From Defluviitaleaceae bacterium (GTDB taxonomy: Bacteria > Bacillota > Clostridia > Lachnospirales > WQUN01), in the NCBI GenBank assembly GCA_009787785.1, contig WQSR01000009.1:3638-67637 (forward strand): DNA of 64,000 bases, read 5' to 3'. The position numbers were made by a program, and so were the translations under genes. Below are positions 1,025-51,231 of this stretch, piece by piece. The notes under the pieces were generated by a model. It made no database searches, was not told the origin of the DNA, and saw nothing but the letters and a program-made list of their open reading frames with translations. The number at the start of each line of letters is the position of its first letter. Positions within the stretch are counted from its first letter, which is position 1.

Positions 1025-1273
1025 CTATCCGGCAGCGTTTGCTTCAATAATCTTTTTAATGATTACATCATAGTATTCCGGCACATGGGGCAGATGGCAG
1101 TCTATGCAAATTTTAAGCCCTCTTGCGCTACGGATAAATTTGCCGCCACACGCATCTGACGGGTAAAGGGGGCAGTAGCAAAACAGGCAATTAAACCGCG
1201 CTGATTCCGGTGCATTATGGCATGGAAAATGTTTGCATTCGTTGTTGTTGAAAAAACGCTCATTATTCTTCAT
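1025..1273 (-). CDS. Cysteine-rich small domain protein (cobalamin-cluster associated)
   Basis: 82-aa ORF with many Cys (CKHFPCH...CLFCYCPLYP...CGG...CIDCHLPH). It abuts the cobD stop. Domains of this kind are known to travel with cob genes. Confidence 0.7.
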   Translation of the reverse strand: MKNNERFFNNNECKHFPCHNAPESARFNCLFCYCPLYPSDACGGKFIRSARGLKICIDCHLPHVPEYYDVIIKKIIEANAAG

Positions 1274-2329
1274 CTAAATATCTCCCATCGCAGCTAACAA
1301 TTTGCTGTTGTTTTCTGCTGTTGACACAGCAATTCGGTAATAGCTGTCATCCAGTCCGTGGTAGTTCCCGCAAGCGCGGATGCGGATGCCTTTTCTATCG
1401 AGTTTTTCGCGCAAATCAAAAGGGTGCGGATTCCGAAAAAATATATAATTGGCTTCGGAAGTAGATATTTTGTATCCAAGCCGTGCCAGTTCTTTCACTA
1501 ATGTATTTCTTTGGGTGGATGTAAATGCTACTGTTCGTTTGATAAAATCTTCCGCGCCATCAAGTGCCGCCAGCCCTGCCCCCTGTGCTAAATTAGACAC
1601 AGCCCAATCCGCTCCATGAAAATATAAACTGTCAATCAAGGCTTCATCTGAGCATAGGGCATAACCAAGACGGATACCCGGCAAAGCGAACATTTTTGTA
1701 AATGCTTTCAAAATAACGAGATTTGGATATTCTTCAAGGTAGATTTTACTGGTATGTAAAACCGCCTGTTGCGCAAAATCCATAAAACATTCGTCAACAA
1801 CAACCCATGCGCCGATTTGCTTGGCGCAGTCCAGCAATTCGCCAATCAACCGAGCCTCTGTTAGCTTGCCGGTGGGATTATTAGGATTGCATACATAAAT
1901 AAGAGTGGGTTTTTCTTTCTGCACAGCTTTAATAAATCTACCATCCAGTGTAAAATCATCATCCCGATACATAACATGGCGGCATATTTCCGCGCCATAT
2001 GATTGTGCCGACCTTTCGTAATCAGCAAAAGTAGGCGCACAAACCATTACTTTTTTTGCCTTCATTGCTCTCGGCAAGCGGAAAATAATGTCAGATGCTC
2101 CATTACCAAAGAATATCCATTCTGGCTTTACGCCTTCAAATACTGCTGTTTTTTCGCACAGTAAAGTGTTGAAATTGTCGGGATAGCGGTTGATATTTGG
2201 AAATTCACGGATAATCGCGGACTCTACCCCTTCCGGCACACCCAGCGGGTTTATGTTGGCAGATAAATCAATGATGCCTTCATTTCCATGTTCAAAAACG
2301 GCATTTCCACCGTGGCTGTATTTATACAT
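1274..2329 (-). CDS. cobD: L-threonine-O-3-phosphate decarboxylase (class I/II aminotransferase fold)
   Basis: 351 aa. Starts HGGN...IDLSANINPLG and has the PLP-aminotransferase-like core (YVCNPNNPTG). ATG at 2327-2329. It overlaps the cbiB stop by 8 nt and ends in TAG. Confidence 0.88.
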   Translation of the reverse strand: MYKYSHGGNAVFEHGNEGIIDLSANINPLGVPEGVESAIIREFPNINRYPDNFNTLLCEKTAVFEGVKPEWIFFGNGASDIIFRLPRAMKAKKVMVCAPTFADYERSAQSYGAEICRHVMYRDDDFTLDGRFIKAVQKEKPTLIYVCNPNNPTGKLTEARLIGELLDCAKQIGAWVVVDECFMDFAQQAVLHTSKIYLEEYPNLVILKAFTKMFALPGIRLGYALCSDEALIDSLYFHGADWAVSNLAQGAGLAALDGAEDFIKRTVAFTSTQRNTLVKELARLGYKISTSEANYIFFRNPHPFDLREKLDRKGIRIRACGNYHGLDDSYYRIAVSTAENNSKLLAAMGDI

Positions 2330-3305
2330 AAATAAATCCTCTCAGAACGAAGCCGACTGCCGCCAGCACCACCACCGCAAGTACGGAAGCGGCGTACATT
2401 AAACGATTGGCGGCTTTGATATGCTTCGGGTCGGGAACATTAACATCATCACCGATTGTGGGTTTATGGACGAGAACACCGCGATAATAGCTGTCACCGC
2501 CAAGGCATAAGCCAAGCGCACCCGCGCAAACGGACTCGGTTTGTGCGGCATTGGGGCTTTTGTGGTTGTTTCGGTCTCTGGCATAAATTCGAGCCGCGCC
2601 TTTTATATCGCCGCCAACAAATATACTTCCCACCATCATCAGCAATGCGGAAATCCTCGCCGGAATAAAATTCACCACATCATCTAAACGAGCCGCAAAC
2701 TTGCCAAAATATTCATAATCATCGTTTCTGTAACCAATCATGGAATCCAATGTATTCACCGCTTTGTAAGCCATGCCCAAAGGTGCGCCTCCGATGAAGA
2801 TGAATATAAGTGGGGCAATAACGCCATCCGATAAATTTTCTGCCACCGTTTCCACAGCGGCTTTTGTAACGCCTTGTTCATCAAGGTTTTGTGTATCTCT
2901 GCCAACAATCCATGACAGATTTTTTCGCGCCTCTTGCAAATTCCCTGCGGCTAATGAGTGGTACACTTTCATACTCTCGACTTTGAGTGCCTTTGCCGCA
3001 ATTAGGAAATAGCAGATTACAGCTTCGGCAACTAAGCCAATCCACCAATTGATTTGATAAAATCCCCATGTGAGAAGCCTTGTAGCCACAAAAGAAAGGC
3101 ACACAACAGTTATTGTCAAAATCATTCCGGCTATAAACTGGATGGCGTGATTTTGCACTTTCACCTTTTTGAACGCCTTAATTCCCCAAGAGATACAATT
3201 TCCAATAAGCCGTATTGGATGGATGGGGTTTTGCGGGTCTCCAATAATGCTGTCGAGTAGAAATGCAATTATTATGACAATCGCAAAATTTTCTGTAAAA
3301 ATCAT
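2322..3305 (-). CDS. cbiB: Adenosylcobinamide-phosphate synthase (membrane protein)
   Basis: 327 aa, hydrophobic, with the CbiB signature DPQNPIHPIRLIG near the N-terminus. Its ATG (3303-3305) overlaps the TGA of the extended upstream frame as ATGA. Confidence 0.9.
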   Translation of the reverse strand: MIFTENFAIVIIIAFLLDSIIGDPQNPIHPIRLIGNCISWGIKAFKKVKVQNHAIQFIAGMILTITVVCLSFVATRLLTWGFYQINWWIGLVAEAVICYFLIAAKALKVESMKVYHSLAAGNLQEARKNLSWIVGRDTQNLDEQGVTKAAVETVAENLSDGVIAPLIFIFIGGAPLGMAYKAVNTLDSMIGYRNDDYEYFGKFAARLDDVVNFIPARISALLMMVGSIFVGGDIKGAARIYARDRNNHKSPNAAQTESVCAGALGLCLGGDSYYRGVLVHKPTIGDDVNVPDPKHIKAANRLMYAASVLAVVVLAAVGFVLRGFIYV

Positions 3306-3949
3306 ATCTTGTTTACAGGCAACATGGCATAGGTATCTCTTGTTATTTTTTCGCCAAAGGCAAAAGCGACCGGGTGGTTAAAAATTGCGCCATCGGAAAC
3401 AAATGTATGCTACTCTCCATTTTCACCGCATATATCTGCACCTTGGGAAGCGATACGCTCCGCGACTTCTTTAGTTAGCTGTTGCCCTAAAAATTCATCG
3501 CTTAGGTATTTAGTGTTTACAATGGATATGGTTGCAACAAAACCGCTGTCGATAATTTCATATACGACATCTTTCCGGCTCTCGCCCCAAAGTGGAAATA
3601 ATGCCTCTATACCAACATTTTTACATCTTTCGGTACACCATTCCAAATGCCCTTCGATGTCAATATCACCAAAGACACAGGCTTCCGCGCCTTGTTCCTT
3701 GGCACGTTGTAATGCCTTTTCAAAATTCTGCAAGTATTCTTCGCCGCTTGTTTTTATTAGCCACAGCGGAATATTTACCGATTTTGACACGCTGTCCAAT
3801 ACATCTTCTGTCAATCCATGAAAATGGGAACGGTCAGCATCGGTGTTGTATGTTGTGATTAGGGCAATCGGCTCATGCCCTTGTTTTATGGCTCTGTGAA
3901 CAGCTAACGCGCTTTCTTTGCCGCCGCTGTAAGATGCAACAAATTTCAT
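3302..3949 (-). pseudogene. PP-loop ATP pyrophosphatase of the MJ0570/Dph6 (diphthine-ammonia-ligase-like) family, interrupted by a single in-frame TAG at 3410-3412
   Basis: Starts MKFVASYSGGKESALAV (PP-loop SGGKES). The tracked ORF stops after ...ICGENGE. The same frame continues as HTFVSDGAIFNHPVAFAFGEKITRDTYAMLPVNKI and ends in a TGA that overlaps the cbiB ATG. TAG sits where the family motif GE.GE[Y/F].TFV has an aromatic residue. Confidence 0.65.
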
Positions 3950-4788
3950 TATTCCACACCTTCTTCTAATATTTTGTGTATCAATTCCATATCAAGAGAT
4001 TTGCGTACATTTTCCGCTATATGGTTAAACTGCGCCTCAAAATCTGTTGATGGCTCGAAGCTTACGTCATTATCAAACAGACCATCCTCTTCGGGCAGAT
4101 TAATTTCGGTGTAAGGGATTACCCCGGCAACGGGGCGATTGGTTATATCTGCAAGAATTTTCACTCCATCGGCAAAATATGAAGGTTCGCCTTTGAAGCG
4201 GTTTACTATGGTAGCTTTAACATAATTTTTTTCGGTTTCGTCCATTAAGCTAATTGTGCCGAACAGGGAAGCGAAAATGCCGCCTCGGTCGATGTCGGAC
4301 ACCAATATAACAGGGGATTTTGCTCTTTTTGCCATGCCCATGTTGACAATATCATCTTTGTTTAGGTTTAGTTCCACAGGGCTTCCCGCGCCTTCAATAA
4401 TAATCACATCATATTTATTACAGAGACGGATATACGCCGACATAATTTCCGGCACCAATTTTTGTTTAATTTCCTTGAAGTTATAGGCATTTATGTTGTC
4501 AAAATGTTTACCATTTAGAATAACCTGTGTTGATTTTTGTGGTGAGGGTTTCAAAATAATGGGGTTCATGTCGGGGGTTGGTTCTGCCCCTGCCGCCAAT
4601 GCCTGTAACCATTGCGAAATGGCGATTTCTTCCCGGTTGGCAGTTAGGCAAGTATTATTTGTCATATTCTGTGCCTTAAAGGGTGCAACAGAGTATCCGT
4701 CTTGTTTGAAAATTCTGCACAATGCAAGTGTGAGTATGGTTTTGCCAACGCCGGAAGCCGTACCTTGTATCATGAGTGATTTTGCCAT
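3949..4788 (-). CDS. Cobyric acid synthase-like protein: CobQ/CbiP synthetase domain only, without the glutamine amidotransferase domain
   Basis: 279 aa. The N-terminus MIQGTASGVGKT...CRIFKQDGYSVAPFKAQNM...NPIILKP matches the CobQ signature. Length is a little over half of canonical CobQ. TAATG overlaps on both sides (btuC stop, PP-loop start). Confidence 0.8.
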   Translation of the reverse strand: MAKSLMIQGTASGVGKTILTLALCRIFKQDGYSVAPFKAQNMTNNTCLTANREEIAISQWLQALAAGAEPTPDMNPIILKPSPQKSTQVILNGKHFDNINAYNFKEIKQKLVPEIMSAYIRLCNKYDVIIIEGAGSPVELNLNKDDIVNMGMAKRAKSPVILVSDIDRGGIFASLFGTISLMDETEKNYVKATIVNRFKGEPSYFADGVKILADITNRPVAGVIPYTEINLPEEDGLFDNDVSFEPSTDFEAQFNHIAENVRKSLDMELIHKILEEGVE

Positions 4789-5807
4789 TATGCTCGTTCC
4801 TTCCTTTTGTTGAAATAAATGTAAGCGAAAAACGGTGCGCCGATTAAAGCGGTAACAGCACCCACCGGCAGTTCAACGGGGGATGTCACCGTTCGTGCCG
4901 CAAGGTCGGCAAGTACCATAAAAGTGCCACCCAGCACAGCAGACATAGGAATAACGTGCCTATGCGCCGAGCCAAAAATCTTCCGAACGATATGTGGGGC
5001 AACTAAATCCACAAATCCGATAACGCCGACAAATGCAATGGTGCTTCCTGTCAAAGCGGCGGCTGTAATCAGTAAAGTCAGCTTCACGCGCCGAATATTC
5101 ACACCGATGGTTTGCGCTTGCTCTTCGCCAAAGGTCATGACATCCAATTCCCATTTGAAGCGTGAAATGAAAAAGATGCCAATCAATGCGACAGGGGCGA
5201 GGATATACACGGTCTGCCAATCGCGCATGGAAAAACTGCCCATTTGCCAAAATATCATCCGTTGCGCGTTTTCGCGAAACAATGCGAACATTAGTGTTGT
5301 AATGGCATTAATAAACAGCGCGAACACCATGCCCGCTAAAATAATGGTGTGGTTCTCCATGCGAACATCCAACTGCCGCGCAATCGCCATCACGATTAAA
5401 ATAGTAGCGAGCCCAAAAACGAAACCCAAAATCGGCAAAGTCAGCATGGGTAAAAACGGCAAAGCCACACCCATGAAAATGACCAAAGCCGCGCCAAGGG
5501 ACGCGCCGGAGGATACACCCAGCGTGTAAGACGAAGCCAGCGGGTTTCGTAAAACCGACTGCATAACCGCGCCGCTCACAGATAATGCCGCACCCGCAAT
5601 AAAAGCCAGTACAGCGCGAGGCAAACGCAAATTCCACACGATGGCGGCATGAGCAGGGGTAACGTGTTCGGGCAATTCAAACCCGAACACGTTATGCCCA
5701 ATTATGTGCAATACACTCATGGGAGGGATATTTACACTTCCAATTGCAATGCCCAAAAGTATCGCAACAACGCTCACGCATACAGCAATAGCTATTTTTG
5801 TTTTCAT
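4788..5807 (-). CDS. FecCD/BtuC-family ABC permease (corrinoid/siderophore type)
   Basis: 339 aa with about 9-10 hydrophobic segments and the typical RLPR...GAALS...G motif region. ATGA overlap with the upstream binding-protein gene. Confidence 0.9.
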   Translation of the reverse strand: MKTKIAIAVCVSVVAILLGIAIGSVNIPPMSVLHIIGHNVFGFELPEHVTPAHAAIVWNLRLPRAVLAFIAGAALSVSGAVMQSVLRNPLASSYTLGVSSGASLGAALVIFMGVALPFLPMLTLPILGFVFGLATILIVMAIARQLDVRMENHTIILAGMVFALFINAITTLMFALFRENAQRMIFWQMGSFSMRDWQTVYILAPVALIGIFFISRFKWELDVMTFGEEQAQTIGVNIRRVKLTLLITAAALTGSTIAFVGVIGFVDLVAPHIVRKIFGSAHRHVIPMSAVLGGTFMVLADLAARTVTSPVELPVGAVTALIGAPFFAYIYFNKRKERA

Positions 5808-6829
5808 CGGAAATATTCGGGGAATACTGCCTCCGCTATTTGCCGCAAAGCGATTACAATGTTATGGCTCGGACGATTACTGGCGTTGGCATCAATTTGG
5901 AACACATCGCCGTTTTGCACCGCTGTAATTACATTAAAACCCGGTCTTTCCATGATTTCGCCAAGGGGGTCATCCAGGAAGTCCGTGGAAGTAAGGATTA
6001 CATCGGGGTTTGCCTCAAGAAGCACCTCGTCCGTAACAGGAATCCAGCCTACTTGGCCGGCAAAAATATTGGTTGCGCCTACCAATTCAATCATTTCATT
6101 CAAGAATGTTTCTGTGCCAAAGCTGAACATCCACGGCGCGGGGGAAACTTCAAAGTAGACCGTCCGCGTCTCCGCAATGGTGGCGGCTATTTGACCAATT
6201 TCATCTATTGACCCTTGCATGGTAGAAATAATGCCTTCCCCGGCTTCGTTGGCTTCCATCACGGCTGCAATAAATCGTATATCCTCCATGATGGCGGCTA
6301 TGCTTACGCTGATGGGCATATAAATAACCGTAATACCCGCCGCCGAAACAGGGGCCAATGGGTCATCGCCGCCAACCCTTGTCATACCTGTTATCAGCAC
6401 AAGGTCGGGCATTAAATTGACAATATACTCTGCATCAAGTCCCATCATGTCCAGTTCGGTGGAAATGCGGTCGGGTATTCCCACAACGTCTGCCGAGAAC
6501 ATATCAGCGGCAATAATTCTGTCACTTAATCCCAAAGCAACAAGGATTTCTGTGTTAGACGGCCCGATGGAAATAATTGTGTTGATTTCATCGGGCAGGG
6601 AGATGGCATAACCTTCCCGGTCGGTGTCGGGTCGCACTCGCGCCGGGGCAGGTTCTTCCGGTGTAGGTGTTGCGGCCGGGGTTGGGGAAGGTGTTGCTTC
6701 AGCCGTTGGACTGGGGCTTGGTGATGGTGTTGCGACCGGGGTGGAGTTGTTACCACCGCAGGCTGTGAAAATCATGGCCATGATTAACAGCAAGCCGAGA
6801 AGCGTGATGAGGCTTCTTTTTTTGAGCAT
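5804..6829 (-). CDS. BtuF-like periplasmic-binding lipoprotein (ABC substrate-binding protein, cluster A type)
   Basis: 341 aa. Signal peptide with lipobox (LLIMAMIFTAC), a Pro/Thr/Ser-rich linker, then a PBP domain. It lies in a B12-riboswitch operon next to a BtuC-type permease. Confidence 0.85.
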   Translation of the reverse strand: MLKKRSLITLLGLLLIMAMIFTACGGNNSTPVATPSPSPSPTAEATPSPTPAATPTPEEPAPARVRPDTDREGYAISLPDEINTIISIGPSNTEILVALGLSDRIIAADMFSADVVGIPDRISTELDMMGLDAEYIVNLMPDLVLITGMTRVGGDDPLAPVSAAGITVIYMPISVSIAAIMEDIRFIAAVMEANEAGEGIISTMQGSIDEIGQIAATIAETRTVYFEVSPAPWMFSFGTETFLNEMIELVGATNIFAGQVGWIPVTDEVLLEANPDVILTSTDFLDDPLGEIMERPGFNVITAVQNGDVFQIDANASNRPSHNIVIALRQIAEAVFPEYFR

Positions 6830-6844
6830 TTGGAAATCTCTCCT

Positions 6845-7429
6845 TTAGATGGGTTGATATAGTTTAAGCCCATCGGGAACAATGGAATATCCTCGCCCCG
6901 GTTGTGGCTGCCACTCATAGAAATTTTTGGTATTGGGGAATAAATGCGCCATGATGGAAACAATTACACCGCCATGACACACTACAAATAAATCGCCTTG
7001 CCATTTTTCTGTCAGCATTTCAAACCCCTGTAAAACGCGGCGTGTGAAATCTTGCCTGTTTTCACCGCCGGGGCAAGAAACGCCCCCGGCTTCGTCGGTT
7101 ATCCATGCTTGGTAATCATCTTGCTCTTTTAACATCTCGTAACTTTTCATTTCAAAACTGCCAAAATTAAATTCTGCAAGCTGTGGAATGGCTACCCTTG
7201 GAACAGAGCCGTATAATAAATCGAGTGTCTGCTCGGTACGCATTAATCCGCTGGTGAAATAAAAATCTGCACATTTTGGGTATATGCCTTTCTCTTTTAA
7301 TTCCACGAGTTCTATAATCCCCGCATCCGATAAGGGAAGGTCTGTCGCGCCACAGTATAATTTCTGTTCATTCGCGGGGGTCTTGCCGTGGCGGATTAAA
7401 TGGATTTTAATATCGTTGGTATTCCGCAA
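6845..7429 (-). CDS. cobC: Alpha-ribazole phosphatase (histidine phosphatase family)
   Basis: 194 aa with the catalytic motif HLIRHGKT near the N-terminus. The first codon in the track is TTG, so the start is uncertain. Cob-operon context. Confidence 0.8.
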   Translation of the reverse strand: MRNTNDIKIHLIRHGKTPANEQKLYCGATDLPLSDAGIIELVELKEKGIYPKCADFYFTSGLMRTEQTLDLLYGSVPRVAIPQLAEFNFGSFEMKSYEMLKEQDDYQAWITDEAGGVSCPGGENRQDFTRRVLQGFEMLTEKWQGDLFVVCHGGVIVSIMAHLFPNTKNFYEWQPQPGRGYSIVPDGLKLYQPI

Positions 7430-7782
7430 AACAGCCGCACCACCTCACCGGAATTTTGTGCCAATTGCCCCATGGCCCTGCCCACCGCCTCTCGCCATTT
7501 CCGAAAGGTGGCATCAATCGGCACTATGCCGCCGGAAATGTCGTTACATATGACAATGGCGTCCGGGTTTTCTGTTATAAACTGCTTTATTGATTCTGTG
7601 GCATCGGCATTTTTCTTTATCATCGCAAGCATCCATTTGTCTATCTCGTAAACAACCGTCTTGCCTTTGGGCATATCGGTATCCGTGTCATTACAAAAAT
7701 GCACATCATCTTTTGAACGTCCAAACCGCTCCAAGGTGTAATCCAGCTTTCCTTGGTACGCGCCGCCAAAAATTAAAACCAT
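7396..7782 (-). CDS. Short CobU-like paralog with degenerate Walker A
   Basis: The internal ATG at 7780-7782 is preceded by GGAG. The product starts MVLIFGGAYQGKL (GxxxxGK followed by L instead of S/T). The C-terminal half VICNDISGGIVPIDATFRKWREAVGRAMGQLA...GIPTILK resembles the canonical CobU C-terminus. About 128 aa versus about 180 for CobU. Confidence 0.6.
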   Translation of the reverse strand: MVLIFGGAYQGKLDYTLERFGRSKDDVHFCNDTDTDMPKGKTVVYEIDKWMLAMIKKNADATESIKQFITENPDAIVICNDISGGIVPIDATFRKWREAVGRAMGQLAQNSGEVVRLFCGIPTILKSI

Positions 7783-8552
7783 ATCCGCATCTCCAATCCC
7801 TGCAACAGAGCCAGTGCAATAAGCCCGCAAACTTCACCTATAACAAGCGCGTATCCCAGCAAATCCCCGGATATGCCATTGAAATCTTTGTACACGATTC
7901 TGATTGCCGCGCCATAACCTACAATCACCGCAACCGAAACAATAAGACCGAAAGTTCCGGCGTATACATAGGAAAGGGCAACCGCGCCAATGGCGATAAA
8001 GATGATGAAAACCTTATTTCCTGTGCCGGCATTTTGCCCCAGCATCGCGCTGTAATTGCTGATGGGCATATGGCGTAAAAAGAATATAGAAAACGCAGAG
8101 CAAGCCCTTGACAGCACACATATGGTAATCAGCAATGCCAAAAACCGCCCATTTTCCACGATGGTATACATCGCCGCAAACTGTAATAAAAACAGAATTA
8201 CAAGCATCACAACGGCAAACGCACCCACATTTGGGTCTTTCAAAATGCGCAGTTTTTCTTCCAGTGGTCGGCGCGACAGCCGCGCATCGCTTGTATCCAT
8301 ATATCCATCCAAATGGATGAACCCTGCCGTAAAAAACGGAACGACGGTCATAAGTGCGGCCACCATTATGAGTGGGAAATTTGGCGCAAGCAGTAGCAAT
8401 CCGGCACCCCACCATATCGCGCCAAGAATCAACCCAACCACCGGGAGGGATGAAACCATGATGGCGGTCAGCTTCTCATCCCAAATATGGAAGGGTAGGG
8501 GTATTGCGCAGAACATTCCCAATGCCATGTAAAAGCCCCTAATAAATCGCAT
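7773..8552 (-). CDS. cobS: Adenosylcobinamide-GDP ribazoletransferase (cobalamin 5'-phosphate synthase)
   Basis: 259-aa polytopic membrane protein. CobS-like N-terminus (FYMALGMFCAIPLP) and DGYMDTSD-type motif (HLDGYMDTSDA). Confidence 0.9.
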   Translation of the reverse strand: MRFIRGFYMALGMFCAIPLPFHIWDEKLTAIMVSSLPVVGLILGAIWWGAGLLLLAPNFPLIMVAALMTVVPFFTAGFIHLDGYMDTSDARLSRRPLEEKLRILKDPNVGAFAVVMLVILFLLQFAAMYTIVENGRFLALLITICVLSRACSAFSIFFLRHMPISNYSAMLGQNAGTGNKVFIIFIAIGAVALSYVYAGTFGLIVSVAVIVGYGAAIRIVYKDFNGISGDLLGYALVIGEVCGLIALALLQGLEMRIWF

Positions 8553-9093
8553 TAAACAAATCCCTGCCTTTGTGTGTGATTATCTGCGTGTATGAAACTT
8601 CCAACACGACATCGCAATGTCGCGCCGCCAAGCGGTCAAGGGCCGCCAGTGATTTTCGGTATTCTTCTGTTAGTGATTCAAAAATATGGGCATCGCTGTA
8701 AATGTAATCTGAAACGATGACCATGTTTTGCACACGGTTTAATACTTTTTCCAATCCGGCGGCAATCCGCTCACAGGCACTTCCATCAAAATCCCCTGTG
8801 GCTGAGAACATTTCGTTTGCCAACAATGCCGTGAGGCTGTCCAGCAAAAATGAACCTTCGCAGTCATGTTTATCCAATATTTCCTCTATTTTTCGAGGTT
8901 GTTCTATGGTCGTAAAGCCCCAGCCATCCCGCTCCGCTTGGTGTTTAACAATGCGTTCCTCGTCCTCTTTATCTTTGGCAGACATGGTGGCGATGTAATA
9001 TAGCGGATGGGGAGGATTACTTTGGTCTTTCGCCATTTTCTGGGCATAAGTGGACTTTCCGTTTTTACAGCCCCCCGATATGAAAATCCGCAT
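8539..9093 (-). CDS. cobU: Adenosylcobinamide kinase / adenosylcobinamide-phosphate guanylyltransferase
   Basis: 184 aa. Walker A ISGGCKNGKS and an HQAER motif at the position of the guanylylated His region. GGAGGG RBS upstream of the ATG at 9091-9093. Ends in TAG. Confidence 0.85.
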   Translation of the reverse strand: MRIFISGGCKNGKSTYAQKMAKDQSNPPHPLYYIATMSAKDKEDEERIVKHQAERDGWGFTTIEQPRKIEEILDKHDCEGSFLLDSLTALLANEMFSATGDFDGSACERIAAGLEKVLNRVQNMVIVSDYIYSDAHIFESLTEEYRKSLAALDRLAARHCDVVLEVSYTQIITHKGRDLFNAIY

Positions 9094-10150
9094 CTTTTAT
9101 ACCCTCCACATATTCCTCGCTTATATTGCCTTGCTCAAACGTACCCATGTCGCGCATAATTGCACAAGCCGCATCCATAAGCACAAACATCAGCGGACAA
9201 CCGCTTCCTTCGCCAAGCCGCATATTAAGGTGAAGGCAGGGCTTTATATCCAAAAGCTGTGCCGCATATTTATATCCCTGCTCAAAGGAAGCGTGAGAAG
9301 CAAACATATACTCCTTAACAAGGGGATTCAGGCGCGCCGCAACCAAGGCGGCAACGATGGAAATAAATCCGTCAATTACCACAGGCACACGCATATATGC
9401 CGCGCCAATAAAAACGCCAGCCATTGCCGCAATGTCAAAGCCACCCACTTTTGCCAACACATCCACCGGGTCTGCCGGGTCGGGCTTGTTGTGTTTTAAG
9501 GCTGTTTGTATGACTGCTATTTTCCGGCGATGGGCCTCATCGTTTAATCCCGCGCCTTTGCCGGTGGCTTGTTCCGGTGTCGTGTCTGAAAGGGCGCACA
9601 AAACCGCCGACGACGTTGTTGTGTTTCCAATGCCCATTTCACCAACGCCAATTAGCTTATACCCATCATTCGCCGCTTCGATAGCGGTTTCTATACCCAC
9701 CGTTATGGCTTTTATAGCCTCGTCATGGGTCATAGCGGCTTGCTTGGCAATATTCCATGTGCCATTTCTAATCTTCTTGTTTTTAATCATAGGATGGCCG
9801 ATGTTTCCGTTCACACCTACATCTACTATAATTAAGTCTGTATTAAATTGTTTGGCGAGAACATTTACCCCGGTAATCCCCTTGGTGAAGTTCATGGTCT
9901 GCATATATGTAACGGATTGTGGCGCGAGTGAAATGCCTTCTTCTGCAACGCCATTGTCTGATGCCATGACAATCACACACCGCTTGGCGGTGTCATAGTT
10001 CATCTGCCCGCCAATGCCGGAAAGCCTTACCGCAATAGTTTCCAATTCACCCAAACTGCCGGGAGGCTTTACTAATCCATCCAGCTTGGACTGCGCCGCT
10101 TGCATCGCTTCTTTATTGATGGGGTTTATCCCGGTGACATACTTGTCCAC
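9065..10150 (-). CDS. cobT: Nicotinate-nucleotide--dimethylbenzimidazole phosphoribosyltransferase
   Basis: CobT signature KPPGSLGELE...GEMGIGNTT...GGFDIAAMAG...LGEGSG. I place the start at GTG 10148-10150, 8 nt after GGAGG. The tracked ORF start at 10207 has no RBS. Confidence 0.9.
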   Translation of the reverse strand: MDKYVTGINPINKEAMQAAQSKLDGLVKPPGSLGELETIAVRLSGIGGQMNYDTAKRCVIVMASDNGVAEEGISLAPQSVTYMQTMNFTKGITGVNVLAKQFNTDLIIVDVGVNGNIGHPMIKNKKIRNGTWNIAKQAAMTHDEAIKAITVGIETAIEAANDGYKLIGVGEMGIGNTTTSSAVLCALSDTTPEQATGKGAGLNDEAHRRKIAVIQTALKHNKPDPADPVDVLAKVGGFDIAAMAGVFIGAAYMRVPVVIDGFISIVAALVAARLNPLVKEYMFASHASFEQGYKYAAQLLDIKPCLHLNMRLGEGSGCPLMFVLMDAACAIMRDMGTFEQGNISEEYVEGIKDADFHIGGL

Positions 10151-10261
10151 TATAATTCCTCCACGCTTCGCGGTGCTAAACGTGTGCCACCGGCACACAG
10201 CACCCAATCAAAAATCCCGACCCAACGCGAACCACATCGCAATGAACCGGGATTGTATATT

Positions 10262-10560
10262 GTAAGAAAAAGGAACGATGGCAAAACCATCGCTGGGCAC
10301 ACCCACAATATCCATACCGCCCCATTCTCTGTGGAGTCGCTATAGCAACGGCAATGAGCCGTCAAAATGGGGCAGGTCTCCCGACTTAGACATTATCGCT
10401 TCAGCTTCGCCTTCTCAGATATAAAAATATCCAATGGCTGTTCGGGGCAACCGAACGAGAAACTTTGCTAGTCAATACGGTAGCAGGACTGCTCAGGATT
10501 CCAACCTGATTCCCTATTATCGCGTACCCTCCACAGCTTCATACGAGCCGCAGACTACGC
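10262..10560 (-). promoter_or_regulatory. Cobalamin (B12) riboswitch with intrinsic-terminator expression platform
   Basis: The minus strand reads AGGGAAUCAGGUUGGAAUCCUGAGCAGUCCUGCUACCGUA (conserved aptamer core). A B12 box AGUCGGGAGACCUGCC lies at about 10371-10386. The terminator is CGAUGG-UUUUG-CCAUCG followed by UUCCUUUUUCUU (10262-10292). All of this is upstream of cobT. Confidence 0.88.
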
Positions 10561-10567
10561 GCACCAC

Positions 10568-10595
10568 ATTCTATAAATATTCAATTTTTTGGCAA
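10568..10595 (-). promoter_or_regulatory. Putative sigma-A promoter of the riboswitch-cob operon
   Basis: Minus strand TTGCCA - 16 nt - TAGAAT, just upstream of the aptamer. Motif match only. Confidence 0.35.
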
Positions 10596-23826: not shown

Positions 23827-23910
23827 TGCCCGAGAAGGGACTTGAACCCCCACCCCGTTGCCGGGAGCGGATTTTGAGTCCGCCGCGTCTGCCATTCCGC
23901 CACTCGGGCT
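23827..23910 (-). tRNA. tRNA-Leu (anticodon CAA), type II with long variable arm
   Basis: The minus strand reads GCCCGAGTGGCGGAATGGCAGACGCGGCGGACTCAAAATCCGC...GGGGGTTCAAGTCCCTTCTCGGGCA. The acceptor arm pairs, the T-loop is GTTCAAGTC, and the anticodon loop is CUCAAAA. No CCA is encoded. Confidence 0.9.
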
Positions 23911-32474: not shown

Positions 32475-32652
32475 AAAAAACCCAGAATGTCGGTCCTATA
32501 TTTTGACACCTAGCCTTAGGGCTAGGTGGGTGTCCGCAGCGTGATTTCCGCCCTCCGCTACAAGGCGGCCCGGCGTACCTCACGCATAAATAAGACTCCC
32601 GTTTCACGTCTGTAGGTTCAAAATAATAGGTTGTCGAGCATTCCAGGCCCGT
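32475..32652 (-). ncRNA. Candidate structured small RNA with rod-like, 6S-RNA-like architecture
   Basis: In the minus-strand reading, the 5' and 3' ends pair over about 24 bp. CCUGGAAUG(C)UCG at 32647-32635 pairs with CGACAUUCUGGG at 32492-32481, including 2 G-U pairs. CCUAU(U)AUUUUGA at 32630-32618 pairs with UCAAAAUAUAGG at 32506-32495. The middle is unpaired, there is an apical GCGUGA/UCACGC helix, and the RNA ends in UUUUUUAUUU. A promoter-like TTGCGC-18-TATAAT lies just upstream. Confidence 0.45.
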
Positions 32653-51158: not shown

Positions 51159-51231
51159 CAGGGGTAGTAGGATTTGAACCCACAACTTTCGGTTTTGGAG
51201 ACCGACGCTCTACCAATTGAACTATACCCCT
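51159..51231 (-). tRNA. tRNA-Trp (anticodon CCA)
   Basis: The minus strand reads AGGGGTATAGTTCAATTGGTAGAGCGTCGGTCTCCAAAACCGAAAGTTGTGGGTTCAAATCCTACTACCCCTG. The cloverleaf arms pair and the anticodon loop is CUCCAAA. Confidence 0.9.

Follow-up and report, generated by a model that had tools for sequence, protein, structure and literature searches.

What is a cobyric acid synthase without its glutaminase domain doing in an operon for corrinoid uptake? This question is raised by a 64,000-nucleotide stretch of the genome of a Defluviitaleaceae bacterium (GenBank assembly GCA_009787785.1, contig WQSR01000009.1, positions 3,638 to 67,637), which is referred to here as the window. The gene at 3949-4788 on the minus strand of the window encodes a short CobQ (sCobQ) of 279 residues, and it is followed by a gene for a PP-loop protein. 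An earlier sequence-only reading of this DNA had proposed that the two proteins form a glutamine-independent module for the amidation of scavenged corrinoids. Our analysis gives a different answer. sCobQ is intact and maintained by selection, and it belongs to a deep CobQ clade in which an internal deletion removed the GATase_3 domain; its neighbor is a recent pseudogene in this organism. From its sequence and context, sCobQ may well be an ammonia-dependent amidoligase for corrinoid side chains that is used in salvage, an assignment to which we give a probability of about 0.5.

sCobQ scored 343.6 bits against the cobyric acid synthase model NF001989 (cutoff 273), and the match covered model positions 1-237 of 480. 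The Pfam scan of the protein found CbiA/AAA_26 (PF01656, PF13500) only and no GATase_3 (PF07685), as was expected from the earlier description of a CobQ N-terminus that lacks the glutaminase. When aligned with eight full-length clostridial CobQs, sCobQ lacked the GATase domain, which is cleanly deleted from within, and kept its last ~30 residues. What remains at the site of the deletion is a variable linker of ~15 residues, followed by a well-conserved tail with the consensus QFxxIAxxVRKSLDMxLIxKIL in the short proteins and QYDxLAxxLRxxLDMxxIYKI in the full-length ones. Against the short-CobQ profile, full-length representatives gave one match in the N-domain and a second one in the tail. The alignment and these two-stretch matches thus bear out the proposed domain excision, which is precise and in frame and retains the tail. 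A separately encoded glutaminase nearby was also considered and was rejected for the loci compared, since none of the short-CobQ loci showed a GATase_3 gene and the tail has remained attached to the synthetase domain.

The best 120 clusters of sCobQ homologs all encode proteins of 255-314 residues in which CbiA is the only domain. Their sources are Defluviitaleaceae, Oscillospiraceae, spirochaete and other metagenome-assembled genomes (MAGs), and their NCBI name is 'cobyric acid synthase'. An exhaustive profile search returned 6,700 relatives, and complete short forms make up about a dozen of the best 150 representatives at 50% identity. In the comparison of sCobQ with its homolog in locus L003, the proportions of nonsynonymous and synonymous differences (pN and pS) were 0.145 and 0.74, the latter saturated, and were comparable with those of cbiB and btuC. 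The ratio of nonsynonymous to synonymous substitution rates (dN/dS) of about 0.05, over saturated synonymous divergence, indicates strong purifying selection.

The N-domains of 76 full-length CobQ sequences served as the reference for conservation. At 95 of the 115 positions that are at least 90% conserved in this set, sCobQ keeps the same residue. The P-loop GK, EGAGSPxE, NL..D..NM (N141, D146, N149) and DIDRGG motifs are all kept, which eases an earlier concern that the short protein might lack essential synthetase residues. Seven of the 20 changed positions fall in two short runs, 43-46 (ALNS to TxNT) and 55-58 (MGRA to IA[VI]S). The second run includes, at position 57, an arginine that is invariant in the 76 full-length sequences and absent from the short clade. 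The short lineages L016/L017, L089 and L100, which branch separately, have likewise lost this arginine, and it is retained in the short forms L006, L093 and some others. This repeated loss fits a putative role of the arginine that is coupled to the glutaminase domain.

The AlphaFold (AF2) model of sCobQ is confident (predicted local distance difference test, pLDDT, 87.9; predicted template modeling score, pTM, 0.89). In this model, the tail forms two helices (251-276, pLDDT >90), and the former junction or linker (235-250) is disordered. The closest solved fold is dethiobiotin synthetase (template modeling score, TM, 0.75, target-normalized), with GTPases of the signal recognition particle type and the amidoligase domain of CTP synthase at lower TM. 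A sequence search of the PDB did not find a CobQ structure. These findings bear on the possibility that sCobQ is a truncated, functionless relic and that the whole feature reflects decay. The operon has indeed lost parts, as shown by a nonsense codon in the PP-loop gene and the absence of btuD, and isolated truncated CobQ genes do exist, such as one of 316 residues (L049) that lies beside the full-length genes of L051 and L054 in the tree. However, the dN/dS, the presence of at least 120 clusters with the same architecture, the precise in-frame deletion with its tail and the confident model all speak against decay. The conservation data effectively refute this explanation, and we consider it extremely improbable.

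Phylogeny and gene neighborhoods link sCobQ to salvage. In neighbor-joining (NJ) trees, the window protein falls in one deep clade of short CobQs with L003-L006, L019, L022, L025, L027, L112, P0241, P0249 and P0251, and this salvage clade is placed outside the clostridial CobQs of full length. Separate branches are formed by further short forms (L016/L017, L089, L093, L100, P0264, P0298 and P0274). In a metagenome scan with the alignment of short CobQs, the matches listed were mostly full-length CobQs, which were used as controls, and few further short loci came to light. Loci of the salvage clade carry btuF and btuC, with or without btuD, together with riboswitches and nucleotide-loop genes. 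In loci of at least 12 kb, with genes counted within ±10 kb, CbiA or CbiC was found in 0/10 loci of the salvage clade vs 31/37 full-length loci (Fisher p = 1.5e-6, a test that overstates independence because the loci share ancestry and some of them had been collected with sCobQ as the query). Also, no homolog of CbiA (a,c-diamide synthase), CbiC or GATase_3 was detected in the whole 64-kb window, in agreement with the earlier statement that corrin-ring genes are missing here.

The reading of sCobQ as an ammonia-dependent salvage enzyme would work as follows. sCobQ would keep CobQ chemistry and form, with ATP, an acyl-phosphate on free side-chain carboxylates (b/d/e/g-type) of adenosylated corrinoids. 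The activated carboxylates would then be amidated with free ammonia in place of glutamine-derived ammonia. In an organism that imports corrinoids, this step would complete or repair the amidation of incompletely amidated or deamidated imports before they reach CbiB and CobU/S/T. Fusions link both sCobQ and the family of the PP-loop protein (DUF71-B12, see below) to adenosylated substrates, namely a short CobQ fused to CobA (P0274) and DUF71 fused to a PduO-type adenosyltransferase.

Several points weigh against this reading. The trees are rough NJ trees without support values, and the Fisher p-values are generous for loci that share descent, several of which were retrieved via sCobQ itself. 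The host genome could carry ring-synthesis genes or a full-length cobQ at another place. The reading assumes that the natural pool of partly deamidated corrinoids is large enough for selection. Moreover, the glutaminase was also lost in fusions with the de novo enzymes CbiC (P0264) and CbiA (P0298), and its loss alone is therefore not proof of salvage.

The last point brings in an alternative, in which sCobQ is an ordinary de novo cobyric acid synthase that can dispense with its glutaminase in an ammonia-rich gut, with the ring genes elsewhere and the salvage neighbors incidental. The cobT-U-S-C-cbiB-cobD-cobQ architecture is indeed the same as in producers with a full-length CobQ (L012, L015, L033 and others), and the catalytic motifs of sCobQ are intact. 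Outside the salvage clade, short CobQs are fused to CbiC (P0264, L113), to the CobA/BtuR adenosyltransferase (P0274) and to a complete CbiA/CobB (P0298, L114/L115), whose GATase_3 is the protein's only one and which is followed by cbiB in L114. Glutaminase loss has thus been repeated, and some of the cases are in de novo settings; evidently, the synthetase domain of CobQ is viable when it has no glutaminase of its own. The Akkermansia-type cobDQ was examined as a further short form and set aside, as the one CobD::CobQ fusion scanned (P0272) has GATase_3. A de novo role is made less likely by the CbiA/CbiC counts given above, by the lack of these genes in the window and by the embedding of the clade among btuF/btuC and candidate remodeling genes (DUF71-B12, CbiR-like). 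We regard it as unlikely.

The stop and start codons of the operon overlap as TAATG on both sides of sCobQ, with btuC and with the PP-loop gene, and the second of these overlaps had been pointed out before. The placement of the PP-loop protein in the Dph6/MJ0570 family was correct at the level of the family, as the gene matches PF01902 (Diphthami_syn_2, E = 3e-38), the profile that had been predicted, and has the SGGKES loop. It is not Dph6 itself, since its score against TIGR03679, the Dph6 equivalog, was 111.9 bits (cutoff 197.3) and its second motif, ENGE-[TAG]-H, is that of DUF71-B12. The closest solved structure is PF0828 (3RJZ, E = 2.4e-16). In their division of DUF71/COG2102, de Crécy-Lagard et al. 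(2012; PMC3541065) set a 'DUF71-B12' subgroup apart from Dph6; in this subgroup, the signature ENGE[F/Y]H replaces EGGE/DxE188. Clustering with btuCDF was reported for 75 of the 102 DUF71-B12 genes and clustering with cbiB for 18 of the 102 (PMC3541065). The window gene agrees with the subgroup in its PP-loop, its ENGE[F/Y]H context and its position, with btuF/btuC upstream and cbiB downstream, but it does not have an intact coding sequence (~215 residues). The link of DUF71-B12 to B12 salvage has thus been known since 2012 and is not new (PMC3541065).

The frame at 3302-3949 on the minus strand, which had been taken for an intact gene, is interrupted. Its codon 180 is TAG (3410-3412), so that the protein would read ADICGENGE, stop, HTFVSDG. 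As encoded, the DUF71 open reading frame (ORF; 3410-3949, minus strand) has 179 codons and stops 107 nt ahead of cbiB. The ATGA coupling to cbiB that had been described exists in the read-through frame only, where the former C-terminal 35 codons (3302-3409) are still in frame and end in a TGA that overlaps the cbiB ATG. The TAG stands in place of the conserved Tyr of ENGE[F/Y]H, one codon ahead of the motif His, and removes this His, the following Thr of the motif region and the last 35 residues. The codon at this site is TAC in L029, which encodes a 95%-identical protein (P0121), and TAT in L003; all other homologs inspected have ENGEYH.

Two trivial explanations for the TAG were tried and ruled out. 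It is not a sequencing error because the same TAG is found in the independent assemblies L001 (ENA ERZ27257339) and L002 (Logan SRR6219166). Recoding was rejected as well, from the stop codons of the window: TAG terminates 19/57 ORFs of the window, among them cobD, cobU and the genes for ribosomal proteins L1 and L11, and therefore it has not been generally reassigned. Compared with L029, the dN/dS of DUF71 was 0.033 upstream of the TAG and 0.20 downstream (38 synonymous and 6 nonsynonymous differences vs 7 and 5; Fisher p = 0.045). Since TAG is an ordinary stop in the window, the DUF71 gene of this organism is, as judged from these comparisons, a recent pseudogene produced by a TAC-to-TAG nonsense mutation. 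As encoded here, sCobQ would then be the only functional member of the pair. In L029 (1-300) and L030 (1-335), homology with the window starts only 16 nt upstream of DUF71, in the last five sCobQ codons. These loci appear to be without sCobQ and have an inverted 25-60-nt piece of the riboswitch region upstream, which may reflect either a rearrangement or, as the contigs are short, an artefact of assembly.

The recurrence of the pair in other genomes, which the sequence-only reading had proposed to survey, is clear. A DUF71-B12 gene was present in 9/11 loci with a salvage-clade short CobQ vs 0/85 with a full-length CobQ (Fisher p = 4e-11), and the two genes are tightly spaced or overlapping across the depth of the clade (L006, L112, L004, L005, L003, L027). 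The two genes also occur apart. sCobQ was found without DUF71 in the spirochaete loci L022-L024, in Gudongella (L016/L017, sCobQ-cbiB-cobD) and in a minimal cobC-sCobQ pair (L117). DUF71-B12 was found without sCobQ in the recovered stretch of Tyzzerella L111 (cobA-HAD-cbiB-cobD-DUF71), of L116 and, apparently, of L029/L030; sCobQ could lie beyond the recovered sequence in L116 and L029/L030 because these end close to DUF71. No sCobQ::DUF71 fusion was seen among the best 120 DUF71 matches or the best 150 sCobQ representatives. DUF71-B12 is fused to a PduO-type adenosyltransferase in P0152 and L019, and to the zf-like domain PF04071 eight times in the best 120 matches (P0154, P0160, P0170 and others).

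These data can be held against the proposal that sCobQ and the PP-loop protein make up an obligate, glutamine-independent two-protein module that re-amidates scavenged corrinoid carboxylic acids. Within such a module, a possible split would give the a/c-type positions to DUF71-B12 and the b/d/e/g-type positions to sCobQ. The strong co-occurrence and tight spacing of the genes and the separate fusions of sCobQ and DUF71 to corrinoid adenosyltransferases would suit it, as would the comment of the reviewer Aravind that PP-loop enzymes are typically amidoligases (PMC3541065). However, the DUF71 gene of this organism carries a nonsense codon while sCobQ beside it is intact, and therefore a two-protein module cannot operate here as encoded. 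Each gene also occurs without the other, the fusion of the two is absent from the sets searched, and most of the 102 DUF71-B12 clusters were described beside btuCDF or cbiB only (PMC3541065). The module as originally proposed thus does not hold for this organism, and an obligate one is doubtful in general. Because DUF71-B12 is a frequent but separable operon partner, it is more likely that DUF71-B12 and sCobQ would be two enzymes of one salvage route than that they form an obligate complex.

What DUF71-B12 itself does is a related question. The gene was found to be anticorrelated with CbiZ in bacteria, and a role like that of CbiZ in the salvage of pseudo-B12 was suggested for it with caution (PMC3541065). 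In an explanation based on this 2012 proposal, DUF71-B12 would replace CbiZ: by opening the nucleotide loop of cobamides or cobinamide that have been imported, it would provide CbiB with adenosylcobyric acid, and sCobQ would act only downstream or alongside, for example in amide repair, with no shared chemistry. This overlaps with the reading of sCobQ that we prefer. The anticorrelation and the clustering with btuCDF and cbiB are in its favor (PMC3541065), and L111 has DUF71 with cbiB-cobD in the absence of sCobQ. In the spirochaete locus, which is without cbiB and cobD, the slot of DUF71 is taken by an AP_endonuc_2 protein whose best match is CbiR, although this match (26.9 bits) is far below the cutoff of 105. 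Aravind's objection as a reviewer was that PP-loop enzymes are ligases and not hydrolases, and there is little precedent for a PP-loop ATP pyrophosphatase as an amidohydrolase (PMC3541065). This explanation is put forward only tentatively. The AP_endonuc_2 gene encodes a TIM-barrel protein at 10846-11616 of L022 (spirochaete MAG GCA_009778155.1), directly after sCobQ, and the CbiR match is to NCBIfam NF041277. A second cobalamin riboswitch and btuB-like/btuFCD genes follow further on in this locus.

The frequent company of cbiB suggests yet another role, in which sCobQ would use ATP to activate the f-carboxylate of cobyric acid on behalf of the membrane protein CbiB. Such a role would account for the retention of the synthetase half alone in salvagers that rebuild cobinamide phosphate. 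Engineered E. coli cassettes for B12 production pair CbiB or CobD with CbiP or CobQ (10.1101/394338). In most loci, sCobQ shares an operon with cbiB-cobD, and it adjoins cbiB in L016/L017, L025 and L114. The chemistry of CobQ-type enzymes (ATP to ADP + Pi) matches the stoichiometry of EC 6.3.1.10, and we know of no recognized nucleotide-binding motif in CbiB; both points count for this role. Against it, sCobQ is present in loci without cbiB or cobD (L022-L024, L117). Halobacterium cbiP mutants reportedly grow on cobyric acid, which also counts against a requirement for such a partner. We think that this role is very unlikely.

If sCobQ is an ammonia-dependent amidoligase, as we favor, a wider proposal can be made, though it is a good deal less certain. 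sCobQ and DUF71-B12, perhaps with the zf-like protein and an adenosyltransferase, might constitute an unrecognized ATP-dependent and glutamine-independent branch of salvage that re-amidates or finishes imported corrinoid carboxylic acids. In the open-access literature, we found no description of a CobQ clade that lacks the glutaminase and is associated with salvage operons and DUF71-B12. The available text of PMC3541065 on DUF71-B12 does not discuss an association with such a CobQ, and later biochemical work on the subgroup was not found in the literature searched.

The operon that holds sCobQ spans window positions 1025-10583 on the minus strand, led by a cobalamin riboswitch at 10354-10583 (RF00174, 92.1 bits, E = 1.5e-21, gathering score 31.5); homologous loci have a riboswitch at the equivalent place. 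The gene order is cobT-cobU-cobS-(CobU C-terminal-like)-cobC-btuF-btuC-sCobQ-DUF71(pseudogene)-cbiB-cobD-zf-like, all on the minus strand. The lower-ligand phosphoribosyltransferase gene cobT (9065-10207) was recognized as an ORF and by PF02277 (DBI_PRT) on the identical L001 gene. It is followed by cobU, for cobinamide kinase/guanylyltransferase (8539-9093; PF02283, E = 7e-28), and cobS, for cobalamin synthase (7773-8552; PF02654 on the identical L001 gene). cobC (6845-7429) encodes an alpha-ribazole phosphatase (PF00300; TIGR03162 107.9 bits, below its cutoff). The uptake genes are those for a btuF-like substrate-binding lipoprotein (5804-6829; PF01497) and a btuC-like permease (4788-5807; PF01032, E = 3e-94). 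sCobQ (3949-4788) was delimited by domain profiles, alignment and model, and the DUF71 ORF by PF01902 and its PP-loop. Then come cbiB, for adenosylcobinamide-phosphate synthase (2322-3305; PF03186, E = 8e-106; TIGR00380, 240 bits), and cobD, for threonine-phosphate decarboxylase (1274-2329; PF00155; TIGR01140, 270 bits, just below its cutoff). The last gene encodes a zf-like Cys-rich small protein of 82 residues (1025-1273; PF04071, E = 3e-21), of the family that is a fusion partner of DUF71-B12 elsewhere. The operon is thus a cobalamin-riboswitch-controlled unit for corrinoid uptake and nucleotide-loop assembly, and its earlier description as a B12-riboswitch salvage operon was accurate.

Some details of the operon deserve comment. 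Between cobS and cobC, a small protein of 144 residues (7396-7830, minus strand) matches only positions 102-166 of the PF02283 profile and covers only the C-terminal third of CobU. Nearly all related loci have a counterpart of it (126-128 residues), whether their CobQ is short or full-length. At window positions 1273-1276, the TAG stop of cobD is followed immediately by the ATG of the zf-like ORF in the same frame. This second in-frame TAG junction of the operon is probably a coincidence, with a chance of 1 in 3. A btuD ortholog was not found in the window, and the operon has btuF and btuC only; the only ATP-binding cassette (ABC) ATPase matches in the window are distant ones (about 29-30% identity) at 30.1-31.6 kb. 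btuD closes the operon in the relatives L003, L025, L027/L028 and L112, and in the window a LysR gene comes after the zf-like ORF. The other Rfam matches, a 6S RNA and two tRNA genes at 32475-32652, 23827-23909 and 51159-51231, are unrelated to the operon.

Related loci hold further genes of interest. In L025 (13051-16483), a NifH::NifD-like fusion (nifH 318 bits, F430 CfbC 315 bits, both below cutoff) and a second NifD/K/BchB-like protein are encoded directly after btuD, at the end of a B12 salvage operon. A HAD-family gene lies just upstream of cbiB-cobD in L111 (7368-7985) and L112 (6464-7066). The L111 copy is SerB/ThrH-like, and the L112 copy has the Pfam HAD label only. This gene could supply L-threonine phosphate instead of PduX. 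The stand-alone short CobQ-like genes of L089, L093 and L100 (ORFs of 280-313 residues) are in neighborhoods without B12 genes, where the neighbors encode an Exo_endo_phos protein, an ADP-ribosylglycohydrolase and a PNPOx-like protein.

Corrinoid salvage and remodeling shape microbial communities, and several of the steps have no assigned enzyme. The conserved glutaminase-less CobQ clade adds a new variant to an enzyme already known and offers a useful clue to DUF71-B12, a family whose function has been open since 2012. Its association with DUF71-B12 and its place in operons that have no ring-synthesis genes nearby provide a concrete, testable substrate hypothesis, corrinoid side-chain carboxylates and ammonia. 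If it is true, the proposed salvage branch would open 'damaged' or incomplete corrinoids as a nutrient pool and would assign a ligase function to DUF71-B12. In the genome studied here, where one of the partners is a pseudogene, the finding is of less value. The data also show that two names in current annotation mislead: 'cobyric acid synthase' is given to short CobQs as though they were complete, and the NCBI name 'diphthine--ammonia ligase' is a misnomer for these bacterial DUF71 proteins.

Among known systems, sCobQ is most readily compared with CobQ/CbiP (EC 6.3.5.10). The synthetase domains are homologous over their whole length, with the P-loop and catalytic motifs and the C-terminal tail in common, and both occupy an operon position after cbiB/cobD and share the name that NCBI gives to members of the sCobQ family. 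They differ in that CobQ/CbiP has a GATase_3 glutaminase domain (~210-250 residues), in the patch at 43-46 and 55-58 with its invariant Arg, which is changed in sCobQ, and in the location of the sCobQ clade in uptake and salvage operons without neighboring ring-synthesis genes. Ammonia-dependent versions of amidotransferases are known, such as the NH3-dependent NAD+ synthetase NadE, a synthetase without a fused glutaminase that uses free ammonia. sCobQ is like the NadE-type enzymes in its lack of a fused glutaminase, and its use of ammonia is predicted; no description of an ammonia-dependent form of CobQ was found in the open-access literature. The peptidoglycan amidotransferase MurT/GatD is described as a case in which a CobQ-type GATase_3 domain and the synthetase exist apart from each other, as modules of their own (PMC5871853, PMC6085368). 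It is the converse case, with a stand-alone GATase_3 and a Mur-ligase-like partner, whereas sCobQ is a stand-alone synthetase for which a GATase_3 partner was not seen. CbiZ and CbiR fill the same operon niche as the window pair, but neither sCobQ nor DUF71-B12 is homologous to them. The PP-loop gene of the window belongs with the DUF71-B12 subgroup (PMC3541065) by its SGGK[DE]S and ENGE[F/Y]H motifs and its clustering with btu genes and cbiB, and it differs from it by the TAG at the signature F/Y codon and the truncation at 179 residues. Finally, the Dph6 diphthine-ammonia ligase of archaea and eukaryotes shares its fold and PP-loop with the window gene, but its catalytic Glu188 corresponds to His in the window gene, and bacteria are without diphthamide.

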